DNA of 64,000 nucleotides, from the IMG/VR virus record IMGVR_UViG_3300010351_000784, positions 1-64,000 of that record, one strand, 5' to 3'. This document shows, piece by piece, positions 9,934 through 63,703 of this stretch. The stretch comes from a virus. Lineage: Duplodnaviria; Caudoviricetes. Every line of letters begins with the position of its first letter. Within the stretch, counting starts at the first letter, position 1. The notes under the pieces are model-generated. The model was not told the origin of the DNA. It saw only the letters and a program-made list of their open reading frames with translations, and did no database searches. Position numbers and translations under genes: made by a program.

Positions 9934-10275
9934 TTACCAAGAAATTTCCCTTAAGCCGCCACTTCTATCATAGAATGAAGTTTCCTTTTCTTCTGCGGGA
10001 GATTCTTTTGTTTCTCTTGCATACATTCCCATAGAGGGGTATAAATCCTCACCCTGAAATGTAATCCAATGCTCTTTTGCATGGAATTCAACGTCATAGC
10101 TTTTGCCGCCAAAGGTATTGAATCTTTGATTTATGAGCATACAATTATCAATGTCCTTAAAATTTAATAGGACTTCATTTCCTTCTTCGTCATGTCCTAT
10201 TATAATAACTTGCTCAATATTTTTAGCCTCAGCCATCACAACCCTCGCAAGTAAATACTTCCATAGACTGACCAT
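9934..10275 (-). CDS. Hypothetical protein
   Basis: ORF; likely start at MAEAK. Confidence 0.5.
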   Translation of the reverse strand: MVSLWKYLLARVVMAEAKNIEQVIIIGHDEEGNEVLLNFKDIDNCMLINQRFNTFGGKSYDVEFHAKEHWITFQGEDLYPSMGMYARETKESPAEEKETSFYDRSGGLREISW

Positions 10276-11857
10276 TCCTAAACTTCAAAAGAGGCTGGAT
10301 TGTTTCCTTTTTTGCCTTAAGAGCAAGCAGTACATCTGTAATGATAAAATCATAGAACTTCTCTGTGCCAAGACCAAGAGTATATGGAATACTGTGGTCA
10401 TCAAGGAAGAACTGAATTCTATCGCCGATTTCATTTGACTCTGCTTCGGTCTGATTTCTGCCGATTGGGCTGTACGGCTTATCTCTTACAATTCCATAGT
10501 TCATATTGTCATAAGTATTGAATACATCAAGAACGAGCTGTTCATAGTGTTCACCAAGAACTGGATTTGTATTGTAGAAGATACCAAGAGGAAGAGGGCT
10601 ATCAGTTATAATTACATCGACCTTATCGCGGCAACGCTTCATTCTGAAAGACTGCTTGCCAAAGGTGTATTCCTGACAACTCAAAGCTTGTTTATTTTCT
10701 TCCCACGTGAAGTCTTTCGCTACTTCTGTAACTAGTTCGCAATTAACACCCATCATTTTTAGTTGTGAAAAAATATAAGCTGCCCCTGTTGAATTATGAA
10801 CAACAGTACAATCATCAAGAACAAAACGGTGATTACCATCTGTCGTAAAGCCAAAAAATTCGTCTTCTCCAAGAGGCATTATCTCAAAGCATTCTCTTAA
10901 TGGTTTTGTTATATCTTTAATTATATTTTTACATATTTTTCGTGGAATTTTTACAGGAATAGTGGTAAGGTCTCCAGTAATATTAACTCTCCAATATTCT
11001 CCAACAAAATCTCCACAAGATTTTTTACAAGAAGTAATTGTCGCTCTAAGTCCACAACTATTAACTAAACAGTAAAAATCATAAGCTAAAGTCTTATTTT
11101 TATTCATCCAATCATAAGAAGTTCTATTAAGATTTCCATCAGAATCAATCAACCCAGCAATAAGAGCAAGTCTATTTTCTAAAGTTGCTGTTCTATATTC
11201 TTTAGGGATGTGCTTATTTTTAATGAGATTATATATATTGCCACTTAACTGATGATGGGCTCCTCCAATATTTCCTTTTGTTAAACAATACGTTTGGCAT
11301 TTGCTATCTTTATAAGAATGTTGTTTTAATTCAAGCCCCAATTCCTTTGCATAATATCTACAATAATCAACTATCTCTTGGTCAGCAGTACAAAAACGGT
11401 TTATAGATTCGCTTAGTCCATCTCCAAGCCAATAACCTAAATAATAAGGGTCAATTTTCAAGCTCTGTCTCTCTGATTGAGTAAAGAATCCTACTTTTGT
11501 TTTATATAATCTCGCATAGTGTTTATATTGAACACCTTTATTAAGATAATCTTCAATAGAAATATCTTCATGAGACCAGCTCTTATCTCTATGATAGCAC
11601 ATTAAAGATAAAATATGATTTGCACTTACAACGATATCTTTTGAAAAACTTCTTTTAAGAAGATACATTGGCGCTCTACCCTGATGTAATTCAAGAACTT
11701 TTCGTGGGGTAGAGTCATCTCCCATAACCCAATCTCCCACCATTACGTCTTCAATATTTTTTATCTCACCATTCCACATAAGAACTTTAGTTCCTTTTGC
11801 AAAACATTTGCCGCTACCCGGTGCTCCGAATAGATTAACTACAATTGGTCTTTTCAT
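10229..11857 (-). CDS. NadR/AAA_28-like P-loop kinase with intein
   Basis: GAPGSGK|...|STGAA, TEVAK, ITDSP, GRNQT. Confidence 0.8.
   Translation of the reverse strand: MKRPIVVNLFGAPGSGKCFAKGTKVLMWNGEIKNIEDVMVGDWVMGDDSTPRKVLELHQGRAPMYLLKRSFSKDIVVSANHILSLMCYHRDKSWSHEDISIEDYLNKGVQYKHYARLYKTKVGFFTQSERQSLKIDPYYLGYWLGDGLSESINRFCTADQEIVDYCRYYAKELGLELKQHSYKDSKCQTYCLTKGNIGGAHHQLSGNIYNLIKNKHIPKEYRTATLENRLALIAGLIDSDGNLNRTSYDWMNKNKTLAYDFYCLVNSCGLRATITSCKKSCGDFVGEYWRVNITGDLTTIPVKIPRKICKNIIKDITKPLRECFEIMPLGEDEFFGFTTDGNHRFVLDDCTVVHNSTGAAYIFSQLKMMGVNCELVTEVAKDFTWEENKQALSCQEYTFGKQSFRMKRCRDKVDVIITDSPLPLGIFYNTNPVLGEHYEQLVLDVFNTYDNMNYGIVRDKPYSPIGRNQTEAESNEIGDRIQFFLDDHSIPYTLGLGTEKFYDFIITDVLLALKAKKETIQPLLKFRNGQSMEVFTCEGCDG
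10793..11806 (-). mobile_element. Class 1 intein with LAGLIDADG endonuclease (338 aa) in Walker A
   Basis: CFAKGT start, LGYWLGDG and LIAGLIDSDG, ends VVHN before Ser. Confidence 0.9.
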
Positions 11858-12431
11858 GGGCGTCCCTCCATTTAATTTTCTTATAAATATAGATATAGAA
11901 GAAATTGTCTACGATGTTTCCAATCAGTGCAAAGATAAATAGATATTTTAAATCGAGAGGGCAGATAATAGCAAAACCTGCTCCCATTAAAGTCGCTGTT
12001 GCTGAAACAATTTGATTGTTATTGTCATAACATTCTCGTAGTTTTTCTGTTGGGTTAATCTTTGCTCGCATTTTTGTTCCGCCGCAGTAAAGGTTTCGTG
12101 TAATAAATGAGTAGATTATGATGTTCAATAGAAAATAAAAACTCAAATCCCATCGTATTAGTACAGCTGTAAACAGAATTACATCTGCCACAATCTCTGC
12201 CCATAGCATTACTAAATAATGATTGAAAAATTTGTCGCTGTATTTATTCCACAACTTACAGAAAATGATTGTAGAAATACAACAAAGTATTTGTTCCAAT
12301 CCAATATACCCACGCGGCACAACCTTGATTGTTTCAGCATAGATATAAGGATAAGAAGTCGCATAGAATAGTGTGCTAATAAAATTAGCCAGTAACATCA
12401 GGTTCGATAATCTTTTCAGTTCCATTTTCAA
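11835..12431 (-). CDS. Multi-pass membrane protein (MFS half-like)
   Basis: 5-6 hydrophobic segments. Confidence 0.6.
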   Translation of the reverse strand: MKMELKRLSNLMLLANFISTLFYATSYPYIYAETIKVVPRGYIGLEQILCCISTIIFCKLWNKYSDKFFNHYLVMLWAEIVADVILFTAVLIRWDLSFYFLLNIIIYSFITRNLYCGGTKMRAKINPTEKLRECYDNNNQIVSATATLMGAGFAIICPLDLKYLFIFALIGNIVDNFFYIYIYKKIKWRDAHEKTNCS

Positions 12432-13844: not shown

Positions 13845-15326
13845 TTAACGCCAGCTAAACTGTGAGCGAGAAAGAATCTCAATCATAGCAGACATAGCGT
13901 CCTGAGAGATAAGAGTTGTAAGCTCCTTAAAAGTAGCAGCAGAGCTACCACTGAGATAAGCTACTCCCCTGTTCTCCTTAGATGCAATGTAACGGTCACC
14001 ACGGGAAGCGACGTTCCACATAATAAGCTTTGGAGCCTTAAGACCGATGCTTGCATACTTAGCCTGCCACTTCTCAGCAATTCCCTCGAAAGAAGAACCG
14101 CGAGCCTCAAGACTACGTCTGTAGCTGTCGATTTCTCCGTCAGAAATTACGATAAGTGCAGAAGGTGCGTCATGCTCTCTCTTAGTAATGTCATAGATAC
14201 GCTCGAAAGCAAGGTCAAGGTTAGTGCTAAATCCCTCGTGAGAAGTCATCTGCTGAACTCTTGAAAGCAAGCTGTCGCTTGGGTTCAAAGTGTAAAGAGA
14301 AGGCTCGTTAGTGAATGACATAACAAGGTTCTTGTAAGCACCGCTGTTACGCTCTGCAAAGTAGATACCAAGGCTGATTGATGTTGCCATAGGCAAACCA
14401 GTCATAGAACCCGATACGTCTGCAAGAACAATTGCGTTGTGCTCACCCTTGACGTAGTTTGGAAGTGCCTTCCACTGAGCCTCAAGCACAGGGTCGAGCT
14501 GAGTTCTGGAAAGGCTGTACCATCCAGCTACAGCATCAACATATGGCTTTGCAAGCTCATATGGGTAAGTAACTGAAGCGTTAATCTTTGCATCGCCGCT
14601 TGTTACAGCGTTGATGTAAGCGTTAAAACGCTCAAAGTCGTGCTTACCGAATGCAGAGCGGTAGCGTGTCATAGCGACAGAAGGTACTGCCTGATAGTCG
14701 ATAGCGCCGAAGTTTTGTGCGGACATCTTCTTCTCAACTACATCAAGGTACTTTCTAAGTGCAGAAAGAGTCTTTCTGTAAGTACGCTCGCTCAAACCGA
14801 AATATGTGTAAACCTTTCTCGCAAGACGACGAGTCTCCTTAGAGCTTGTGTTTGCAGAAGGAAGCCACTTAGCAAGCAATGAGATAGAGTTACCCTTGCC
14901 CATGTCAGTAATGTCCTTACGGAGCTGCTCCTTCATGAACTTAAGAGCGTCATTCTCAACGCTTGTACCTTCAAAGACAAACAAGTCGTCCCAACGACCT
15001 GCAGACACGATTGTGTCAAGGTTACGACGAACCTTTGCAGGGTCCTTGATAGCAATAGTCTTCAAAAGAATTCTTGCGATTCTACGCTCACCGATACCGC
15101 CCTCACGGATGTTACGGGCATAAAGAATAAGGTTATCTGCAAGCTCTTTGTCCTCGTTACGAGCATCGAGATAAAGACGGTTAATCTCAGACTCAGATGC
15201 CTGACGAAGTCCACCTACACGTGCGAAAAGGTTAAGCAGTGCGCTACCTGTAGTAGACTTTACCACCGCACCGTTTTCAGTGCGAGTAAGGTTGCTGTTT
15301 CCACGAAATCCATCAGTAAAACTCAT
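13845..15326 (-). CDS. DUF2828 / TROVE-like helical + vWA protein
   Basis: TENGA..STT, RxIRxGxGER, GRWDDL, LLAKWLPS, vWA DVSGSM and ISDGE. Confidence 0.85.
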   Translation of the reverse strand: MSFTDGFRGNSNLTRTENGAVVKSTTGSALLNLFARVGGLRQASESEINRLYLDARNEDKELADNLILYARNIREGGIGERRIARILLKTIAIKDPAKVRRNLDTIVSAGRWDDLFVFEGTSVENDALKFMKEQLRKDITDMGKGNSISLLAKWLPSANTSSKETRRLARKVYTYFGLSERTYRKTLSALRKYLDVVEKKMSAQNFGAIDYQAVPSVAMTRYRSAFGKHDFERFNAYINAVTSGDAKINASVTYPYELAKPYVDAVAGWYSLSRTQLDPVLEAQWKALPNYVKGEHNAIVLADVSGSMTGLPMATSISLGIYFAERNSGAYKNLVMSFTNEPSLYTLNPSDSLLSRVQQMTSHEGFSTNLDLAFERIYDITKREHDAPSALIVISDGEIDSYRRSLEARGSSFEGIAEKWQAKYASIGLKAPKLIMWNVASRGDRYIASKENRGVAYLSGSSAATFKELTTLISQDAMSAMIEILSRSQFSWR

Positions 15327-15351
15327 AATAAGTTCCTCCTTTAATCATACA

Positions 15352-15382
15352 AGATTCATTTTAATTTGTGCTGTAAGAATCT
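15352..15382 (-). ncRNA. Stem + TTACAGCA motif RNA, copy A
   Basis: AGATTC ttacagcac..GAATCT. Confidence 0.5.
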
Positions 15383-15388
15383 ACAACG

Positions 15389-15449
15389 CGTCACGCCTCT
15401 CTTGTCAAAAGAAAATGGCGACAAATTATATAGGTTGCTGCACGTGACG
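15389..15449 (-). ncRNA. Stem + TGCAGCAA motif RNA, copy B
   Basis: CGTCACG tgcagcaacc..CGTGACG with internal TTGTC/GACAA hairpin. Confidence 0.5.
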
Positions 15450-15452
15450 AAA

Positions 15453-15529
15453 TGGTACTCCGAGTGGGACTCGAACCCGCAACACACCATGTTTAAGACG
15501 GATGCCTCTACCAATTGGATTACCGGAGC
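15453..15529 (-). tRNA. tRNA-Leu(TAA), short variable arm, encoded CCA
   Basis: GCTCCGG/TCGGAGT acceptor, loop CT-TAA-AC, GGTTCGAGTCC T arm, ACCA end. Confidence 0.85.
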
Positions 15530-15749
15530 ATTTAAAATGAGCTTTTTGTATACGAAGTCTGCTCAAACTCCGCCGCCATATCGCATTCATGATACATATT
15601 CCCTATCCTGGCGCCTGTATCACTTCTGCCATAGGGCTGGTAAAATTTCTTTAGGGGCAGCGTGGTACACTTGCCTGACTACTCGGAAGATTGTCAACTA
15701 CCACACTTTCGTTCTGGTAGAGGCGTGCTGACCACATAGATAAATACGC

Positions 15750-15847
15750 AAGACACGAAAAATCTGAAAATCCTTGATAACCAATTCACTAAATGATTTT
15801 AAATCTAAATGTTTTTAAATAATTTACAGGTCGCTGTAACGTGTCTT
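15750..15847 (-). ncRNA. Stem + TTACAGCG motif RNA, copy C
   Basis: AAGACACG ttacagcgacc..CGTGTCTT. Confidence 0.5.
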
Positions 15848-15849
15848 CT

Positions 15850-16282
15850 AAATTTCGACGGTTTACATTGCCCGTCAATTGGTGTGGGATAGGAGAATGG
15901 AGGGAGCAAACCTATTGAAGCCAATCTCTTTCTTCCCACAGCGGCTCGTCACCGTTCGGCGTCTCTTTTATGCTTTAGCGAAACTAAAACCTACGCCATA
16001 CTCCTTTTGAGAGCATACTGTATTTATCGCTGACCGATAAACTTTAAGGAATAATGCTATAACATTATCACGATGGACGGTGTTTTCTGATTGTCTTTCA
16101 TAGCTGAAATATTTTCGGGCTTCAGCCACACGAGCGGTCTTGGATTCTCGCCGCCACAAAGTACGGGTAACGTAACCGTACACGCCACACTCTTTCTTAG
16201 CTATGTGATGCCGTCTCATCCTCCGCCTAAGGGAGGTAAGTCTCTCGTTATTTGTTTTATGGATTGCTGTCTTTCCATCGTT
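15850..16282 (-). ncRNA. GC-rich multi-hairpin non-coding transcript (unassigned)
   Basis: Directly after promoter; at least 7 hairpins; no convincing ORF. Confidence 0.4.
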
Positions 16283-16320
16283 TCTATAATAATTATAACA
16301 AAAATTTTGGAAAAAGTCAA
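16283..16320 (-). promoter_or_regulatory. SigmaA-type early promoter (family copies near 200, 985, 2350, 5720, 8530, 9890, 12650, 18450, 21520, 26290, 30115, 51970 minus; 52018, 54558, 58020, 58835 plus)
   Basis: TTGACT-N17-TATAAT with extended TG and conserved ATTATAGA tail. Confidence 0.8.
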
Positions 16321-16352: not shown

Positions 16353-17276
16353 TTAATGTGCGTTAAGGTCAGCCTCATGGACAAGCTCATACACCTTGCA
16401 CATATCTTCTCCATAAGTTGCCTTGAACTTCTCAAGATAATGCTCAGAATCCGCATAGGACTCCATATGCCACTGTACAAGTACAATCATATTTGCGAGC
16501 AGAACGTGCTGCTTCTCACCCTCAAACTGATTTGCACAGCAAGCCATCATGTATGCGCCGATTTCAGCGTGGTTGTAGTAATGAGAATGGTCATCGAGTT
16601 CACCATTCATCTTCTTGCGAGACTTAACTACAGGCTTACCGATATCGTGGAATAATGCGGCAGTACGAGCAAGATGAATCTGAGCCTTATCCAGACCCTT
16701 CTCTTCACCGTGCTTGGATGCGTATGCACCTGCCTGAATCATGTGGTCAAAAATGTTCGCAGAGTGATGAGGATTATCATGGTCTACACCGTAAGCATCG
16801 TAAAGATACTCTCCAAGAGTCTTGATGTTCTTAGGATGTGCAATCATACGAATGCCATCCCAGCCCTCGTCAAGACGAGGAAGAGTCATCTGCTTGTACA
16901 TTCTCATGATAACGTCCTCAGGAACCTTGCGGTTACGAGAAGCGTTCTGCTCAAGGATAATGTCAAGCTCAGTTGCGGCTACTACAGCAATCTTCTTCAC
17001 GCCAGCAGGAAGGTCCTTCAAGAAGGACTTTCTACGCTTACGAGAAAGGTTGGTAGCATCGTATACGCAGGAAGTACCTGCAAGGAGATACTTTCTAATG
17101 CGGTTGTGAACCTCATTGAAAACCTCTCCGTTATGAGTCTGGTCCTCTTCAGAACCGAATAACTCTGCGCGAATTGCATCGGAAGATACAACAGGAGCGT
17201 TTAGAGTATTTGCAATGTAGGACTTGCCGGAGCCTGGTTAAGGAATGCCAATCATCATATATAAAATTGGCATCAT
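16353..17276 (-). CDS. Polynucleotide kinase (AAA_33) + HD domain; in-frame TAA at 17238-17240 within Walker A
   Basis: MIGIP*PGSGKS, SSDAIR, YDATN, HDNPHH, FHDIGK, HAEIGA. Confidence 0.8.
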
Positions 17277-25695: not shown

Positions 25696-26267
25696 TCTTC
25701 GCCTTCCTCCTTAATATCAGAACGAGTTTCAGTTTCTTCCATTGATTCAAATGCTTTCATGTTATTATAAATAGTAAGTAATTCTTCTGTGTTCAAAGGA
25801 GAATATCCCCACTTTATTGCGTCAGCAGAAAGCATCATATCTTTAATCATTCCCTCAATTGGATTTTCTCCATCAACAACGATTAAAGCATATTGTTTAT
25901 AAAGGTCGAGTCTTTTAATTGGTTTAATTTCATAAAGGACTTCTTCACCAGTTGGAAGTTTATTGAACATAGGTACACCCCAAAAATGTTTGAAACCAAT
26001 TTCTCTCCACTCAGCCTTTGTAAACTTCTCATTCAAGTGTTTTGATGTCGCAGTTTTAATACCGTTAAGCCGTGAGAATATAGATTTCATCTCTTCAAGA
26101 GTTCCATCTCCATTGTCACCCATGATAATTACATCATCTTCAGGCTTAACAACCCTATTCCAACTTCTTATTATCTCTGCGTTCATCTATGCAAAATTTG
26201 AATAGCCAAGTTTTTGTAGCTGTTCTTTATTGAATAATTTTAAATCTGCAATTATGTAAGTTGCCAT
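25692..26267 (-). CDS. Calcineurin-like phosphoesterase, degenerate metal ligands
   Basis: YIIADL, MNAEIIRSWN.VVKPED..IIMGD; TAG=Gln. Confidence 0.65.
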
Positions 26268-26466
26268 ACTTTCCCTCCTTACAATTTCTTTATTTTATTA
26301 TATCAAAAATTTGAAAAAAAGTCAAGAAATCAAAAAAAGAGTAGTCATAAGACTACTCCTTTTGGTTGCGTGTTCCCATTTCGATATTTTCTGTTTTTGC
26401 CTTTTTACTTGTCTCGCTTACGCAATCGAGTTGCCAAGTCAATCACATATCTTTTCTAATGGGACA

Positions 26467-27327
26467 TTAGACGGTACGGAAATGATTGTAAACGCCATCT
26501 CCCTGCCACTGATTACAAGTCCAATTTGCGAACTCTTGTGGATGATTAAAGTAATAATCTACGGCATCTGACATTGTTGAATAATGAACACTTCCTCCAC
26601 AGAAGTAGTCATTATATTTATTGAAGCCCCATGGTGCACAAGTCTGGTCAAGTACACCTTCAACGTTGTTGGGCCAGCGTGAATCATTTACCATATTCAT
26701 AACTGAAGCAACAATCTTAGCTCTTTCGTAGACACTTGTCATGCCGCCGTATTCGCTTGCAACAATTTTGCAAAGCAGTGTGTAATCTCCATCACTAATT
26801 CCCGTACTTGATACTGCAACTACAGGAGCAGGCTCATTATACTAAGTTATAATTTCCATGCCTGGATTACATTCACTACATTTTCTACATTCTAATCCTT
26901 CTGTATTCTCAATTTCATAACACTCACTATTTACCCAATGACAGGTAGAGCGATGTATATAATGTGTGCTTGGTTTAAACACAACATATTCTCTTTTAGG
27001 TTCTGCCGTTTCCTTTGCCGCCTCAGTAACTTCGGCAGTTGTTACTGGTTCAGTTTTAGCTTCAGTTTCTACTGAAGTTGTCTCTGTTACTGATGTTGTG
27101 GTTGAAGGTAATGTAGATGTGCTTGTGATAGAAGTTGTGGATGTACTTGTGGTAGTGGTACTTGTGGTAGTAGTTCCTGTAGTTACTGTTGTTACCTCTG
27201 TACCGTTTGCTTTACTTAATGTGCCTACTTTACAAGACGTAGTAAAACAAAGAACGGCAGTAGTAATTATTGCTGCTGCCGTAACTGAAATAACTGTAAT
27301 AATTGTTTTTCTTTTCTTCTGATTCAT
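26467..27327 (-). CDS. Secreted SleB/Hydrolase_2-like cell-wall hydrolase with Thr-rich linker
   Basis: Signal peptide, Thr-rich linker, LLCKIVASE..VASVMN.V...WPN.V.GV..Q; joined by TAG=Gln. Confidence 0.75.
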
Positions 27328-39366: not shown

Positions 39367-40386
39367 TCACTTTAAATAATATTCATAGTTCTCATTGAAC
39401 TCTGAGTAGTCTTCGTTCTTTACTCGGTAAGTATATTCAGGCATTGATACGTTTGTTACAACAGTTAAGAAGTGAGCAAGAGAAGTTGTAACCATATTCT
39501 GATAAACTTCTGCAAACTTTTTCTTTATTGTTTTATCATCAATTTTTGAATATGCTGCCTCATAAAACCAACGAGCAAGTTTAAGAATTTCTATTGCTTT
39601 AGCTTCGCCTTTGTTCTGAAATACGTCTAAGAAATGGAAATAAATTCTTATCCAAACTGCGATACAATGATAAACACATTTATCTTTATACTCAATTCCT
39701 CTTAGTACGCACTGGTCATAAACCCATATCATATTCTCAACGTAACTCTTGAAACCTTTGTATTTATATTCGTGATTGTTTTCACGAGTTATTGAAGATG
39801 GTTGAAATCTCCAAAAATAAACTGGCTATAAAAGCCAAGTAACATTATCTGTACAAAGAGAACAAAGAGTACAGAAACTATTATCTTCATTTGCTCTTGT
39901 ATCATTAAAATTTATATTGTTCTTTCTCAGAAACTCTGTCTTATAAAGTTTTGCAAAACACCAAATAAAACTGCGCTCATGGATATAAGTTGTTCCATCT
40001 TCAAGTTCCTCAATAGTTTGTCCACAAATCATATCTGCATTTGGATTTGCAAGAGCTTCACTATAAAGTCTTTGAAGCACCGTACTGTCAATATATTTAT
40101 CATCTGAGTCGATGAAGGTAATATATTTCCCTACTGCTTTATCAACGCCCATATGGCGGCAAACACCAGGACCAGCGTTCTTTTCTGGCTTAAGGATTGT
40201 TAAATTAAGATTGAGAAAATCGTTATAGACTTCTGAATAATTTTCAGTAGAACAGTCATCAACAATAATAACTTCAATCATTTTATTCATTCCCTAATCT
40301 GCAATACTCTAAAGACAATCTCTGAAATAATCAATAGATGTATTATAAAGCGGAATTATAATACTAATCTTTACTGATTGTTTCAT
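39367..40386 (-). CDS. Glycosyltransferase family 2 (339 aa, TAG=Gln)
   Basis: ISIIIPLYN, IIVDDCS, YITFIDSDD, NED. Confidence 0.85.
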
Positions 40387-40409
40387 ACTCCTTTCCTCCT
40401 TATTAAAAG

Positions 40410-40437
40410 AGCCGCCATCCGCTTACTGAATGGCGGC
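40410..40437 (-). terminator. Intrinsic terminator after endolysin
   Basis: GCCGCCAT/ATGGCGGC hairpin plus U-tract. Confidence 0.65.
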
Positions 40438-40445
40438 GTAATTAC

Positions 40446-41531
40446 TTAAGCCTTTACAATCTTAACCTGAATTTTATCAATAGCCTTTCCGTAAAGACCT
40501 GCATAGTCTTCGAGACCCTTAACCCATGGAAGGTAAGCGCCAGTGCCGAAGAGTGAAACTCTGTACATTGCCTGATAGCCAGGAGCACCAACAAGTTCCA
40601 TCTGAAGACCATCAACTGTACAGCCAGGATATCCTGCAACACCGTTGTTCCAGTCAGCCTTATTGTACTGGTCAATCCAGCTATACCATTTGTTTTCGTT
40701 TTTAACATGAACTCTGTACTTAAGTTTACCTTCTGATGTTTTTGCGCCGAAGCCTGAGATAATATAATTCTCAATACCAGCGTAGCCGTTTATATTAACA
40801 TCATTGCAGTTCTTAATTTCACCAAGCCAACGACCTGGGATATATGCACTATATACTACGTCAATAGTTTTTTCAACAGGCTTTACTGGCTCTGGAGTAG
40901 GTTCAGGCTTTGTATCTTCCTCTTCCTTCTTTGCATAGTCAACATAACTCCAGTCTTCATCAACATCGCCGTTAATGCCGCTGTACTTACCTTTCCAAGA
41001 ATACTGCCACATTTCCTTATGACCAGGATAACCAGTATTTGAAAGTGGTGCACCACCATTACCAACGTGTGCAAGCCATACATCATACTTACCTTTTACT
41101 TCATCTGTAAAGTAGGTCTGGAATGTGTAGTATGAAGAATAAAGACCAACCTTATATCCTGCCGCCTTGAGAGCTTCACAGAATACTTCTGCAATCTTAG
41201 AAACATTTGCCTTACCTGTTGCAAATACTGAGTTCTCTTCAATATCATACCATACAGGATAGTCCATCTTTCTGCCGCTTAAGCACTTAATACAAGCTTC
41301 AGCTTCTCTCTTTGCATCGTCAACTGTTTTAGCATAGTTATACCAATAGCCGCCTACTGGAATATTGTTTGCTTTACAGCCTGCATAGTTAGCTTCAAAT
41401 CTTGTATCCTTCTGCGATACTTCACGACCATAACCGATACGAAGTATAGCGAAGTCAATTTCTTTCTTTGTCTGCGCCCAGTTAATGGAGCCGTTCCAGA
41501 CACTTACATCAATACCCTTAAGCTGTGCCAT
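40446..41531 (-). CDS. Endolysin, GH25 muramidase + C-terminal binding repeats
   Basis: GIDVS, WYDIEE, MWQYS, VDED; linker; YRVHV..W..W repeats. Confidence 0.9.
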   Translation of the reverse strand: MAQLKGIDVSVWNGSINWAQTKKEIDFAILRIGYGREVSQKDTRFEANYAGCKANNIPVGGYWYNYAKTVDDAKREAEACIKCLSGRKMDYPVWYDIEENSVFATGKANVSKIAEVFCEALKAAGYKVGLYSSYYTFQTYFTDEVKGKYDVWLAHVGNGGAPLSNTGYPGHKEMWQYSWKGKYSGINGDVDEDWSYVDYAKKEEEDTKPEPTPEPVKPVEKTIDVVYSAYIPGRWLGEIKNCNDVNINGYAGIENYIISGFGAKTSEGKLKYRVHVKNENKWYSWIDQYNKADWNNGVAGYPGCTVDGLQMELVGAPGYQAMYRVSLFGTGAYLPWVKGLEDYAGLYGKAIDKIQVKIVKA

Positions 41532-59137: not shown

Positions 59138-62100
59138 TATTGGAAGAAAGAATAAAAATTTCACAACTCAGTGGAATAAACTGTAGAACGAATTTGGTAC
59201 AGAGCTTGCCTATTTAAACGGCTTTGGTGATGACCAGCTTTCTCTCGGAGAATTTATTGACAATTTCGTTGACGAGCCAGTTGTAGCTGATAGCTCAATT
59301 GACTCAAACAGTAATGTAAGAAGAAAAGATATTGTAACCCTTCTTTCAGAAATGCCAAAGCCACACAGAAAGGTTATGGCTTTTCAGAAGATTTATTATG
59401 AAATGCAGAAGGAGTATGGTTTCAAGGCTGCTAATGAATGGCTTCGCCGCGAGTGGATGGGTGAAATGTAAACAACTTGCCCTTAGATTACTTTTCCCTT
59501 TATCAAGGGGGTTCATATTTAATATGAGCTAACGAGGAAGGCTTTTGCTAATCTCGTGGGAATTTATTTACGAAAAATCTTTTTTGTTTTGTCAAGGAGG
59601 TTTACTTATGAAAAAAGATATTTATGTAATTACCAATATAATTACTGGGATGCAATATGTGGGACAGAGTTCTAATGCTCAAAAAAGATTTCTTGCTCAT
59701 AAACAAGCTAAAGATGGGACAGTTTTTCATCAAGTTATTAGGAATTATGGTCCAGAAAATTTCTTTATAGAAGTATTAGAAGAACAAATCGAAAATTTTA
59801 ATGAAAGAGAAAAGTATTGGATTAAAAAATTGAATACCCTATACCCTACTGGATATAATATGACCAAAGGCGGAGAGGGGTATCCTCACTTAAATGGAGA
59901 GCTTTCTTATCAGAGTAAATTAACTAATGTTCAAGTGAACCAAATTATAGATTTACTCTTAAATTCTTCATTATCTCAAGAGCAAATAGGTGAAAAGTTT
60001 AATGTTACACAAGAAATTATTAGTAACATAAACAGAGGGAAAACATATTTTAGAACAAATTGTTCTTATCCTATTCGCTCCACAAAAGAAAAAGAACAAG
60101 AAGCATCTCAAATCATTTCTGAAATTTTAAATAATAAAAATTTAACTTTAAAACAAATCGCAAAAAATCATCCAAATTTTTCTTATTTTATGATAAAAGC
60201 AATTAACGAAGGAAAGAGTTACAGAAAAAAAGATTTAAAATATCCTCTTGCTATTGAAACTGGCAATAAATTAAAAGAAAATGATATTATTGCGATAAAA
60301 AGTTTCTTGGAGCATGATGATTTAACTATTATTGATATTGCAAATTTTTTTCACGTAAACAAGCAAGCCATAGAAAAAATTAACCAAGGAGAAGCTCATT
60401 TTCATCCCTCTTGGGATTATCCTCTTAGGAAGCATGCTGTTTACAAGAAAAATATTTCTATTGAGGATTTAAATCAAATTAAATTTTTGTTAAAAAATTC
60501 AGACCTCTCTTTTCGAGAAATTGCTCGGCGGATGAATATTAAGTCCCATAGCACTATTAGTAATATCAATAGTGGAAAAACTAAAGCATATTTTGAACCC
60601 AATGAAAATTATCCAATTCGTAAATAAAAGCCTGTAACGACTACCTCGTGAAGAGGACTACAAATGCTATTGATACGCATTTGGAAAGAGTAATTATTTG
60701 TCTTCAAAAGGCAAATCTAAAAAATAGTCTAATAATTGGAGTTGTATTTACATGACTCAGATACTGCAACCTTCAAGTCTTATTGTTTTGCTTACGATTT
60801 AAAGGATTTGGCTGAAAAGGGATTGTTTTTCCTTGGTGACACCTTTAATGCTAAGCCGCCAAAGCACTTGACAACTTTTGTTGACTTCGTAAAAGAGTAT
60901 ATCAACTTTGCAAGTAACAGAACTTCGGGTGAATTTGCTGCGCCCATATGTTTCTTTTCTGCTTACCAGCAGGGTCGCATTTGCGGCTAACGGGGGAGGC
61001 TAAGTGAATGAATAATTCATATGTTAGTCCCGTGGGAATCATTAGAAAAGATATCTACATTATTAAAAACAACATTAACACTAAAGTTTATATAGGACAA
61101 GCTTTAGATAGTAAAAAGAGATTTCAATCTCATTGTAAAGGCGATTATGATAATTCTTTAATTGATAAAACAATTCAAAAATACGGAAAAGAACATTTTT
61201 GGTTTGAAATTTTAGAGTCTCAAATTGAAAATTACAATGAAAGAGAAAAATATTGGATTAAATATTATAATTCAAAAAAGCCATTCGGATATAATATCCT
61301 TGATGGCGGAAATGAGCCTCCTATTTTTTATGGAGATGAACATTCTAATACTAAAATTTCAGATGAGGATGTGCTTAAACTAAAAATAGACTTGGCAACA
61401 ACTCAAATTTCTTTATCTCAGTTGGCAAAGAAATATAATATTTCTAAAAGACAAGTATTGAGAATAAATCAAGGCATTAGTCGAGCTTTATTAAATGAAA
61501 AGTATCCAATTAGGAAAAATTCTAATATAAATGGAAAAATAACAGAAGAAGATGTAGATAATATTATTGATATTCTCAAATACACTTATCGTTTTAATGG
61601 AGATATTGCAAGAGAATATGGAGTTGAAGTTCATGCTATTTCTAAAATAAACGCTGGAATTACACATCATAGGGATAATATTCAATATCCAATTAGAAAT
61701 TGGAAGAGCAGCGGTGTAATATTATTTACTTATGAACAAGTTTCTGATATTATTGACGCTTTATTAAACACAAAAGAAAGCATACAATCTTTAGCAAAAA
61801 AATATAATGTAGATAGAAGAGCCATTGAAGGAATTAACCGTGGCACTTCAAAAAAATATTTTCGTGAAGGACTGTCCTACCCATTACGAAAATTCTAATG
61901 AAGCCTGTATCGACTATCCACGCTAAGTGGAGTACTCTTGCTATTGGTACGTGAGGGGACAGAGAAACACTGCGACAAAGGTCGTAGGAAAATCCAGTCA
62001 GTCCCGATAGAAATATCGGAGTTCCGACGGCAGTCGGATTACCAAACCTTATTCCTTATATGTATTACTTCTGGAAAGAAGACCAGAAGAAGGCTTACTT

Positions 62101-63703
62101 TGGCATTACAGAATGGGACGAGTATGCTTATCAGAACATTCAGAGATTTATTTATGCCGTTAATCAGCCTTGCGTAAGGGATAGAATCTAATTAGAACTG
62201 TCCATTTATTACTTTTCCAGTAATCACTGGGGTCACTTAAATAGTGGCTAACGAGGGAGCCTGGAGCCCTGTCGGGAGACATAGGTATGGTAATCTCGTG
62301 GGAATCATTTAATTGCTCTAATAAAATAAAAATAAAGGAGGTGAATAGATGGAAAAATATATTTATATAATCAAAAATAATATTAACAATAAGGTTTATA
62401 TCGGTCAATCCAATAATCCTAAACATAGATTTAATCAACATTGCCGCCCTAATAATGATAATAGTTTAATAGATTTAGCTATACAAAAATACGGTAAAGA
62501 ACATTTTACTATGTCAATATTAGAAGGTCCAATAAAAAACTATAATGAACGAGAAAAATATTATATACTCAAATATAAATCTTTAAGACCAAATGGATAT
62601 AATATTCTTGAAGGAGGAAATGAACCGCCTCTTTTTAAAGGCATTGAACATCCTGAAGCAAAATTTAAAACTAATATAGAATTAGAAAAAATTGTTTCAG
62701 ATTTAAAATTCACAAAAAATAGTATAAGAGATATTGCAAAAAAATTTAATATATCTTCCTCTTGTGTAAATGATGTTAATTTAGGAAATACTTATTATAA
62801 TTTAAATGTTGAATATCCGCTTAGAAAAAATCCTAATCCAACTGGTAAACTTACTCAAGAAGATATTGAAGAAATTATATATTCTCTAAAATTTAGTTAT
62901 TCTTCTTATGAAGATATTGGAAAAAGATATGGAGTAGAGGGAAGGACTATTTCAAGAATAAACAGTGGAATTTATCATAAACAAAATAATATTTCTTATC
63001 CAATTAGACAATATCGAGCAACAAAAAATGCTGGTCAATTAACTTATCATCAAGTCTCAGAAATTATTGAACTAATTTCTACAACAAAAATAAGTTTAAG
63101 ACAAATTGCGCTACAATATAATGTGGCTCCAAATATAATAATTGGTATTAAAAATGGTTCAACAAAAATGTATAGGAGAGATAATCTTATCTATCCACTT
63201 AGAGCAAATAATTAAATGAAGCCTGTATCGACTATCCTCACGAAGAGGAGTACCTCCGCTATTGATACGCGGCGGGAAAGAGTAATATTACTTTTAACTA
63301 AGTAATAAAAAATAGTCAGCGCATAATGAAAATTATGATAACGTGGGTTAGCAGTCTGCTTTTACAAATACATCAGTATTTGACAGAGAATATTTGATGG
63401 CTTTGTTCGGTGGTTCAGAGTTTCCAAATGGCGAACTTATGGTTGACCACATTGATGGTATTATGGATTTCCAAAAGCTTTATATGAAAGCTATGAGTGA
63501 TATTCGTTCAGAGAATATGTTTACATTCCCTATTTCTACGATTTCACTTGTAAGAAAGGATGGAGAGTTCCTTGACCCTGAGTTTGCAGAGTGGGGAATT
63601 GGACATAATATGAGGTGGAGTGATTCAAACCTCTTCATTGATGATAATGTTTCAAGCCTTTCTAATTGTTGCCGCCTTAAGAGCGATATTCGCGACCTTG
63701 GGT
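59130..63703 (+). CDS. nrdD: Anaerobic ribonucleotide reductase, exons 59130-59462, 60739-60930, 62030-62182, 63346-63703 (continues past window)
   Basis: Spliced: MG|ELYLHD..YCF..PKHL..SG|AVGLPN..RD|GQQSAFTN..FTFP..LSNCCRL. Confidence 0.9.
59463..60738 (+). mobile_element. Group I intron 1
   Basis: 5' site after U, P1 GGGT/GCCC, P10 CAACTT/GAGTTG, ends in G. Confidence 0.85.
59608..60627 (+). CDS. Intron-encoded GIY-YIG endonuclease
   Basis: DIYVITN..YVGQS, EREKYWI, GYN; repeated IN.G..YP.R modules. Confidence 0.9.
   Translation: MKKDIYVITNIITGMQYVGQSSNAQKRFLAHKQAKDGTVFHQVIRNYGPENFFIEVLEEQIENFNEREKYWIKKLNTLYPTGYNMTKGGEGYPHLNGELSYQSKLTNVQVNQIIDLLLNSSLSQEQIGEKFNVTQEIISNINRGKTYFRTNCSYPIRSTKEKEQEASQIISEILNNKNLTLKQIAKNHPNFSYFMIKAINEGKSYRKKDLKYPLAIETGNKLKENDIIAIKSFLEHDDLTIIDIANFFHVNKQAIEKINQGEAHFHPSWDYPLRKHAVYKKNISIEDLNQIKFLLKNSDLSFREIARRMNIKSHSTISNINSGKTKAYFEPNENYPIRK
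60931..62029 (+). mobile_element. Group I intron 2
   Basis: GGGT|, P1 GCCC, P10 CTGC/GCAG, ends in G. Confidence 0.85.
61008..61898 (+). CDS. Intron-encoded GIY-YIG endonuclease
   Basis: DIYIIKN..YIGQA. Confidence 0.9.
   Translation: MNNSYVSPVGIIRKDIYIIKNNINTKVYIGQALDSKKRFQSHCKGDYDNSLIDKTIQKYGKEHFWFEILESQIENYNEREKYWIKYYNSKKPFGYNILDGGNEPPIFYGDEHSNTKISDEDVLKLKIDLATTQISLSQLAKKYNISKRQVLRINQGISRALLNEKYPIRKNSNINGKITEEDVDNIIDILKYTYRFNGDIAREYGVEVHAISKINAGITHHRDNIQYPIRNWKSSGVILFTYEQVSDIIDALLNTKESIQSLAKKYNVDRRAIEGINRGTSKKYFREGLSYPLRKF
62183..63345 (+). mobile_element. Group I intron 3
   Basis: GGAT| pairs with GTCC; ends in G before GGT TAG CAG. Confidence 0.85.
62349..63215 (+). CDS. Intron-encoded GIY-YIG endonuclease
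   Basis: YIYIIKN..YIGQS. Confidence 0.9.
   Translation: MEKYIYIIKNNINNKVYIGQSNNPKHRFNQHCRPNNDNSLIDLAIQKYGKEHFTMSILEGPIKNYNEREKYYILKYKSLRPNGYNILEGGNEPPLFKGIEHPEAKFKTNIELEKIVSDLKFTKNSIRDIAKKFNISSSCVNDVNLGNTYYNLNVEYPLRKNPNPTGKLTQEDIEEIIYSLKFSYSSYEDIGKRYGVEGRTISRINSGIYHKQNNISYPIRQYRATKNAGQLTYHQVSEIIELISTTKISLRQIALQYNVAPNIIIGIKNGSTKMYRRDNLIYPLRANN

Follow-up and report, generated by a model that had tools for sequence, protein, structure and literature searches.

What does a phage gain from placing a gene of unknown function behind a long leader of small, structured RNAs? This question is raised by a 64-kb stretch (hereafter the window) of the 94-kb virus record IMGVR_UViG_3300010351_000784, which is estimated to be 57% complete. 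Here, a gene containing a domain of unknown function (DUF), DUF2828, is preceded by a non-coding leader of ~950 nucleotides (nt), headed by one promoter and with no convincing open reading frame (ORF) in the ~1 kb upstream of the gene. Within 960 nt of the gene, all on its strand, lie four RNA elements, E1 (nearest the gene) to E4, which share one design that we call the handle: a helix joining both ends and, next to its 5' arm, a short motif with the consensus ACAGCAA. Our answer, which we hold with a probability of roughly 65%, is that these handle RNAs are Y-RNA-like partners of the Ro60-like DUF2828 protein, which would represent a different protein family and use a different recognition element. 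Ro60 and its Y RNAs form the classic RNA-surveillance particle, known in a minority of bacteria and a few phages.

In the window, each element consists of an 8-nt 5' arm, a spacer of 2-3 nt, the core (A/G)CAGC(A/G)(A/C), an insert that measures 19-194 nt, and a 3' arm with a G after it (Table 1). The core of E4 is identical to the consensus, and those of E1, E2 and E3 are each one base off. The earlier note, made from the sequence alone, had described three stems with motifs, interleaved with a tRNA-Leu and ending close to the ribosome-binding site of the DUF2828 gene. These elements (E1-E3) were found in their places on the minus strand, with the tRNA between E3 and E2. A fourth ACAGCAA had been noticed at the transcript start. 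It is indeed present near the predicted start, yet its own closing stem had been missed, so the array holds four full elements and not three.

Taken alone, the window sequence hardly lifts this pattern above chance. The 7-mer is not enriched (22 seen vs 18.5 expected), and loose stem-plus-motif matches occur about once per 8-10 kb per strand. All four terminal stems are present in the minimum-free-energy folds, with folding z-scores of only -0.5 to -1.7, which are not informative. The case for a handle family is therefore built on the comparison with relatives, rather than on single-sequence statistics.

Across the window and its relatives, the general design has two arms of 8 nt, the 3' one almost always ending in G. 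Between them come a 2-nt spacer, (A)CAGCAA and an insert of 19 to ~260 nt that is often A-rich on its 3' side. The register is fixed: at least seven of the eight arm positions are paired in 41 of the 44 elements from the window and the related loci, while E1 and its orthologue in locus L020 have six. The outer stem positions are semi-conserved (xARG...CYUG), and the inner ones freely variable. All four elements persist in the close relatives (protein identity 85-97%), with compensatory changes in E3 and E4. For example, the E3 arms of the L001 group read AAGACGCA/TGCGTCTT instead of AAGACACG/CGTGTCTT, which amounts to two compensatory pair changes. The E4 arms ACGATGGA/TCCATCGT are kept in eight close relatives, and L020 has ACGATGGG/CTCATCGT, with one changed pair and one G-U. 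The inner hairpin of E2 also covaries in L001. In distant relatives (31-62% identity), the same design returns with unrelated stem sequences, usually in two to five copies.

Using a fixed descriptor, we found 49 matches on the gene strand in 147 kb of 19 non-redundant DUF2828 neighbourhoods. The other strand had nine, and dinucleotide shuffles gave 9.3 ± 2.7. The earlier note had staked its idea on an enrichment of the motif near DUF2828 genes, and an enrichment is what these counts reveal. A first covariance model (R1) was built from ten seeds in the fixed 8 + 2 register, and its 22 best matches gave a second model (R2). In the R2 alignment of these 22 elements, 98% of the stem positions are paired, all seven pairs change on both sides, and there are 48 double-change positions vs 10.3 in shuffles; these pair counts are biased towards structure, because the alignment was fitted to the model. 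When the 3' partner is slid by 1-3 columns, pairing falls to 36-43%. Every R2 match at E < 0.05 in the related loci lies on the strand of the DUF2828 gene. E2 reaches 44 bits with R1. Its R2 score is 34.3 bits (E 1.9e-4), and no other R2 match in the window is significant. The orthologues of E1 (in L001, L018-L021 and L029) reach 31.7-33.8 bits with R2, and those of E3 21.9-27.9 bits. Judged from these counts and alignments, the handle pattern clearly exceeds chance across the relatives.

The lack of significance in the single sequence would also fit a feature of the DNA itself, such as recombination sites, a repeat family or protein-binding sites, or else a chance pattern in an AT-rich spacer. 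We regard this as highly improbable. The matches are strictly one-stranded, pairing is kept by compensatory changes despite a wholly changed sequence, the inserts range from 19 to 260 nt, and the design is kept across hosts from Actinobacteria to Campylobacter.

The handle design adjoins DUF2828 genes in nearly all relatives examined, down to ~30% protein identity, and the phages that carry both infect Listeria, Mycobacterium, Campylobacter, Bacillus, Escherichia and Vibrio. In searches of whole records with R2, all matches lie beside the gene, except one. In Listeria phage List-36 (132 kb), where the DUF2828 gene starts at 103,837, all three matches are found upstream, at 103,494-103,766. Mycobacteriophage LeBron (73 kb) also has three, all downstream, at 40,199-40,454, of its DUF2828 gene gp53, which ends at 40,161. 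Bacillus phage FADO (165 kb; gene start at 84,586) has five, all at 81,771-84,502 and thus within 2.9 kb upstream, and the Felix O1-type phage SME50 (90 kb; gene at 61,825-63,240) has two within 1.4 kb downstream. The exception is the single match in Vibrio phage KVP40 (245 kb; gene at 168,289-169,716), which lies 7 kb away on the same strand (E 1.7e-6). Four large phages with tRNA genes, T4, T5, SPO1 and phiKZ (704 kb in total), have no DUF2828 gene and no R2 match better than E 0.7. The co-occurrence that a covariance model had been expected to reveal is thus seen in distant phages, with handles almost nowhere else in whole genomes.

Besides phages, a contig labelled Candidatus Pacearchaeota (by its label only) carries four back-to-back copies (L051:3551-3917) directly upstream of a DUF2828 gene. 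The locus is one of eight obtained in a single-protein scan of genome contigs, and the 33% identity of its DUF2828 protein refers to a Blautia homologue (P0240) rather than the window protein.

A restriction to DUF2828 neighbourhoods would also arise if the handles were RNase processing signals of a precursor of tRNAs, non-coding RNAs and mRNA, and stood near the gene only because tRNA clusters are where it resides. In the window and in many relatives, elements lie interspersed with tRNAs, starting 1-3 nt after the tRNA 3' end, as E2 does past the CCA of the tRNA-Leu. Furthermore, a semi-conserved stem base is expected of a cleavage site, and in L007-L012 the elements follow each other back to back, 2-6 nt apart. 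Yet the three handles of LeBron directly follow the gene with no tRNA gene in the 7-kb stretch examined around it. In List-36, tRNA genes are annotated up to 4 kb upstream, but handles occur only in the 400 nt before the gene. Because of these two phages, we consider the handles to be associated with the DUF2828 gene and not with tRNA clusters as such, and T4, T5, SPO1 and phiKZ, with tRNA genes but no handles, point the same way. Processing signals as the whole explanation therefore seem unlikely to us, and processing and protein binding are not mutually exclusive.

The product of the window gene has 493 amino acids and matches DUF2828 (PF11443, 7.9e-37) and DUF7788 (PF25043, 3.5e-19) in Pfam, with a weak VWA_2/von Willebrand factor A (vWA) signal. 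The likeness to Ro60 that had been suspected was seen by structure prediction. An AlphaFold2 model, built from an alignment of 57 sequences, has a mean predicted local distance difference test (pLDDT) score of 93.4 and a predicted template modelling (pTM) score of 0.91. Searched with Foldseek against the PDB, this model has a Ro60, Rsr or TROVE structure for each of its 12 top matches, over the full length and with E-values of 1e-9 to 3e-6 and template modelling scores (TM-scores) of 0.38-0.58. Among them are the Ro60 of Xenopus, human and Thermus phage phiLo and the Rsr of Deinococcus, and isolated vWA domains rank only after them. As in Ro60, the predicted architecture is a ring of HEAT repeats with a vWA domain, in which the MIDAS motif (metal ion-dependent adhesion site; DxSxS...T...D) is intact. 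Its residues D303, S305, S307, T368 and D396 are invariant in the 57 homologues. The protein is thus predicted to adopt the Ro60/Rsr fold. The family is large, with 5,423 representative clusters at E <= 1e-3 in the protein library. In addition, 708 phage GenBank records match by tblastn, some of them annotated as "Ro-like RNA binding protein".

The RNAs and their arrangement resemble known Ro/Y systems in several respects. Bacterial and mycobacteriophage YrlA and YrlB RNAs are described in Rfam as RF02553 (Chen et al. 2014, PMC4201824), and the Ro60 of Thermus phage phiLo binds two Y-like RNAs encoded upstream of it (Yrl1/Yrl2, with a CGAA motif) and recruits the host polynucleotide phosphorylase (PMC12135203). 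In the window and its relatives, as with Ro60 and YrlA, several RNAs are encoded within a few kb of the gene (the YrlA criterion being ~4 kb) and on the same strand. Like Y RNAs, they have an end-joining helix, carry a short conserved motif close to the 5' end and vary in the body. Some copies of the relatives additionally resemble YrlA in having permuted tRNA-mimic bodies. In an Rfam scan of the related loci at relaxed thresholds, long-insert elements matched YrlA with 37.5 (L032), 34.8 (L005), 33.1 (L008) and 31.6 bits (L006), below the RF02553 gathering threshold of 69 bits, and these copies clearly show a T-arm, an acceptor-like hairpin and a D-arm, arranged in YrlA's permuted order.

Several observations weigh against a Ro/Y-type pair, in addition to the bias of the pair counts and the low YrlA scores given above. 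On the protein side, the Pfam scan gave no TROVE match, and both phmmer and profile searches of the PDB sequences returned only vWA proteins and no Ro60. The DUF2828 protein, Ro60-like by structure but with no sequence link to Ro60, is therefore not a member of the TROVE family by sequence. On the RNA side, the window elements are weak members of their own family, as three of the four cores deviate from ACAGCAA and only E2 is significant with a covariance model. They match neither YrlA, looked for up to E 10, nor the Class I RNAs discussed below, and Rfam found only tRNA in the window. Nor did Rfam detect the tRNA-like module of T-arm, acceptor-like stem and D-arm in E1-E4. The family check proposed at the outset has thus assigned no family to the window elements, and in the relatives gives sub-threshold matches to YrlA for long copies and to Class I RNA for short ones. 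The canonical Ro60-binding motif GNCGAA(N0-1)G/GGUCCGA is absent. Whereas Y RNAs carry GNCGAA/CGAA inside a bulged helix, the core here follows the 8-bp clamp, and of two alignments displayed, just one places it against the 5' motif of YrlA. Among the relatives, the elements of L013 and the two copies of Campylobacter phage NCTC12673 were found by a hand-made descriptor only and not by the covariance model, and no match in the Lachnospiraceae-type loci L048 and L049 was convincing.

If the handle RNAs are indeed partners of the DUF2828 protein, the particle could be made as follows. The one promoter would drive a long leader transcript. Cutting of this transcript would then yield two pieces of tRNA type, a structured RNA of no assigned class, and the four handle RNAs. 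Each handle RNA would be closed by the ~8-bp end-joining helix, with the single-stranded-looking ACAGCAA 2-3 nt further on and a variable body before the 3' arm. The Ro60-like ring protein may recognise the handle, that is the base of the helix together with ACAGCAA, much as Ro60 does with the conserved Y-RNA stem, and handle RNAs and protein together would form a phage ribonucleoprotein. Co-occurrence and structure prediction thereby support the inference of the earlier note that the elements would be ligands, decoys or autoregulatory operators of the protein. With its end 9 nt ahead of the ribosome-binding site, E1 is also placed for translational self-repression or for marking a cut that releases the mRNA. 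This position suggests an added autoregulatory or mRNA-releasing role of E1.

One could go further and suppose that only E1 matters, serving the DUF2828 mRNA as a leader hairpin or as an operator of translation, and that the upstream copies are decoys or cis elements, such as attenuators or stabilisers, and not free RNAs. Across lineages, no feature is as constant as a copy 45-70 nt before the ATG, which is found with unrelated stem sequences in L002, L005, L007, L008, L009 and L013, and in L009 and L027 the 3' arm of the gene-proximal copy touches the Shine-Dalgarno sequence. An operator alone would however not account for LeBron and the Felix-type phages, in which all copies are downstream of the gene, or for the copy of KVP40 at 7 kb. 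Nor would a leader hairpin need the elaborate tRNA-like bodies of the long copies, and a terminator-like U tract is present in none of the handle elements. We therefore think it quite improbable that the array is a leader operator only. Both the processing signals and the leader operator partly overlap with the partner-RNA reading.

Our literature search returned no paper describing an ACAGCAA RNA family, and none with DUF2828 in a phage context. Nevertheless, proteins of the same family, as indicated by tblastn, have been noticed in the LeBron-type phages (Bronvirus), as a "Ro-like RNA binding protein", and in Listeria phage CKA15. The homologue CKA15_055 was found in virions and matched to Rsr by HHpred, and the authors, who saw three very abundant non-coding regions within 2 kb upstream of its gene, speculated about Y RNAs in the vicinity (PMC12282133). 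Furthermore, Bas63 gp130, which is Ro60-like by structure and encoded directly upstream of tRNA genes, counters the Ppl defence system, and some "tRNAs" near it are guessed by the PhageMaP authors to be Y RNAs (bioRxiv 10.1101/2024.10.10.617714). From this description and the synteny of Felix-type phages, we infer that gp130 also belongs to the DUF2828 family. The genomic setting of these proteins, beside tRNA genes, is also the same. Neither the CKA15 nor the PhageMaP paper identified partner RNAs or the handle motif.

The handle array of CKA15 has its own TTGACA/TATCAT promoter. Equating this array with a highly transcribed region of CKA15 had to be rejected, as the only region with published coordinates maps elsewhere, which is a further point against our reading. 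That region, at 26,236-26,727 (L036:3076-3567), is the most abundant phage transcript reported, with two small annotated ORFs taking up to 67% of the phage reads. It is a ~490-nt non-coding stretch after a tRNA-Pro, with its own TTGACA promoter and no ACAGCAA handle.

In infection, the particle would probably serve RNA or tRNA surveillance, or else counter-defence. The pointers to such a role, none of which is evidence for this phage itself, are the Ppl phenotype of Bas63 gp130 and the genes next to DUF2828. Directly upstream of the RNA array in the window is a gene for an HD-domain phosphohydrolase (16353-17021, minus strand). In List-36, an HD "metal-dependent phosphohydrolase" (L035:6108-6539) is encoded two genes downstream of DUF2828, and an RtcB ligase two genes after that. 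The HD gene may thus be a recurrent neighbour of the DUF2828 locus. RtcB is absent from the 94 kb of this record (57% complete).

The handle design also resembles an RNA family from a very different source, the Class I RNAs of Dictyostelium (RF01414). Their short terminal stem is conserved only as a structure, the 5' arm adjoins an 11-nt motif, and the ends read AAG...CUGU. They are eukaryotic RNAs of 42-65 nt with their own promoter element (Dictyostelium upstream sequence element, DUSE), and have been described as exclusive to dictyostelids (Kjellin et al. 2021, PMC7919456). In the handles, too, the terminal stem is conserved in structure and not in sequence, a conserved motif resembling ...UUACAGCAA directly follows the 5' arm, the ends are conserved (xARG...CYUG(U) here, AAG...CUGU there), and the remaining RNA is variable and A-rich. 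The RF01414 consensus has a terminal stem of 6 bp, then CUUACAGCAAU and an A-rich stretch, and closes with the 3' arm and UG, which matches the handle design. Short phage elements align end to end with the Class I model, at 23.3 bits for L032 and at 23.1 and 18.5 bits for the copies of the Listeria phage (L035), all below the gathering threshold of 41.5 bits; the window elements, including E1 and E2, gave no match. Compared to the 11-nt Class I motif CCUUACAGCAA, the window has UUACAGCAC (E1), GUGCAGCAA (E2), UUACAGCGA (E3) and AGACAGCAA (E4). These copies share the core of the motif, differ at one to three positions each, and lack the CC. Unlike the Class I RNAs with their narrow size range and DUSE, E1 to E4 measure 35, 65, 99 and 213 nt and form one array behind a bacterial-type promoter.

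These similarities raise the possibility of a second, ancient Ro/Y-type ribonucleoprotein made of DUF2828 and ACAGCAA-handle RNAs, spread over phages, bacteria, archaea and eukaryotes, with the Class I RNAs as its eukaryotic arm and the phage particle as a device for counter-defence or tRNA protection. We consider this broad scenario doubtful. The DUF2828 homologues listed in our protein searches were only bacterial, phage or unnamed metagenome proteins, and look-ups in the atlas and in control genomes gave no eukaryote. The sole proven direct binder of Class I RNA is Rnp1A/CIBP, a protein with RNA recognition motifs (RRM; PMC7919456). According to the preprint of Kjellin et al., four proteins were pulled down with DdR-21, a Class I RNA, and one of them, DDB_G0281243, is of unknown function. 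As a lead only, this could be the DUF2828 protein of the amoeba.

Whatever its reach, the pairing described here means that a different protein family with the same predicted fold as Ro60 travels with its own, differently marked RNAs, and that it does so in very different phages. If the handle RNAs are its partners, a large domain of unknown function would gain a function, and "spacer" DNA in many phage tRNA clusters would be explained, including those of Felix O1-type, P100/A511-type and mycobacterial phages. If true, the link to Dictyostelium would moreover provide the Class I RNAs, unexplained since 2004 and thought to be restricted to dictyostelids, with a concrete candidate for a partner protein and with an origin in evolution. 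One homologue reportedly counters an anti-phage defence, so the particle may matter for phage-host conflict and for phage therapy strains.

Table 1. Features of the DUF2828 locus in the window, in the order of transcription; arms, spacers and cores are given 5' to 3' on the minus strand.
Feature	Position	Strand	Basis	Arms, spacer, core and insert
Sigma-70-type promoter TTGACT-17-TATAAT, extended -10 TG	16292..16320	-	Consensus scan, 11/12 matches; consensus match only	
E4, first RNA of the transcript, 213 nt	16069..16281	-	Stem and core, conserved in relatives	ACGATGGA 16281-16274 / TCCATCGT 16077-16070, then G; spacer AAG; core ACAGCAA 16270-16264; 194-nt structured insert
tRNA-Gly(UCC) remnant and hairpin	15857..15897	-	Alignment of 9 close relatives	
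E3, handle RNA, 99 nt	15749..15847	-	Stem and core; orthologues scored with R2	AAGACACG 15847-15840 / CGTGTCTT 15757-15750, then G; spacer TT; core ACAGCGA 15837-15831; 82-nt AT-rich insert
Structured RNA without handle, ~190 nt	15550..15735	-	Between E3 and tRNA-Leu; RNAalifold	
tRNA-Leu, anticodon UAA, 77 nt	15453..15529	-	ARAGORN; Rfam tRNA 32.8 bits vs threshold 29	
E2, handle RNA, 65 nt	15387..15451	-	Stem and core; covariance models	CGTCACG(T) / (G)CGTGACG, 15449-15443 / 15395-15389; core GCAGCAA 15441-15435; 49-nt insert with inner hairpin
E1, minimal handle RNA, 35 nt	15350..15384	-	Stem and core; orthologues scored with R2	AGATTC 15382-15377 / GAATCT 15357-15352; spacer TT; core ACAGCAC 15374-15368; 19-nt A-rich loop; terminal TG
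Shine-Dalgarno AGGAGG of the DUF2828 gene	15335..15340	-	Read from the sequence	
DUF2828 + DUF7788/vWA protein gene, 493 aa	13845..15326	-	Pfam and predicted Ro60-like fold	

The other parts of the leader (Table 1) follow the promoter, whose predicted transcript start is ~4 nt before E4. Between E3 and the tRNA-Leu lies a structured RNA of ~190 nt, for which RNAalifold, applied to six relatives, gave 49 pairs, seven of them with compensatory changes. A handle around this RNA was considered and rejected, as its CAGCAC sits in an internal covarying stem. With no handle and no Rfam match, the RNA is left unclassified. The tRNA-Leu is atypical, with a low score, several non-standard pairs and a short variable arm, whereas bacterial tRNA-Leu normally has a long one; in close relatives its anticodon is CAA.

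Of the tRNA-Gly(UCC), the window retains only the 3' strand of the T-arm, the 3' acceptor strand and the CCA (15897-15880), followed by a conserved hairpin, GACGG/CCGTC, at 15876-15857. In the alignment of the nine close relatives, the tRNA is whole in L017, L029, L018, L019 and L020. In L001 (2900-3440), L021 and L033, its 5' part is replaced by an inserted ORF whose end overlaps the tRNA. From these sequences, the locus looks like the insertion of a mobile element into a tRNA gene.

Further from the array, a 542-amino-acid ORF (10229-11857, minus strand) contains an intein-type Hint domain and a LAGLIDADG homing-endonuclease domain. It is overlapped on its upstream side by an ORF of 198 amino acids (11835-12431, minus strand), which may be the N-terminal part of the host gene.

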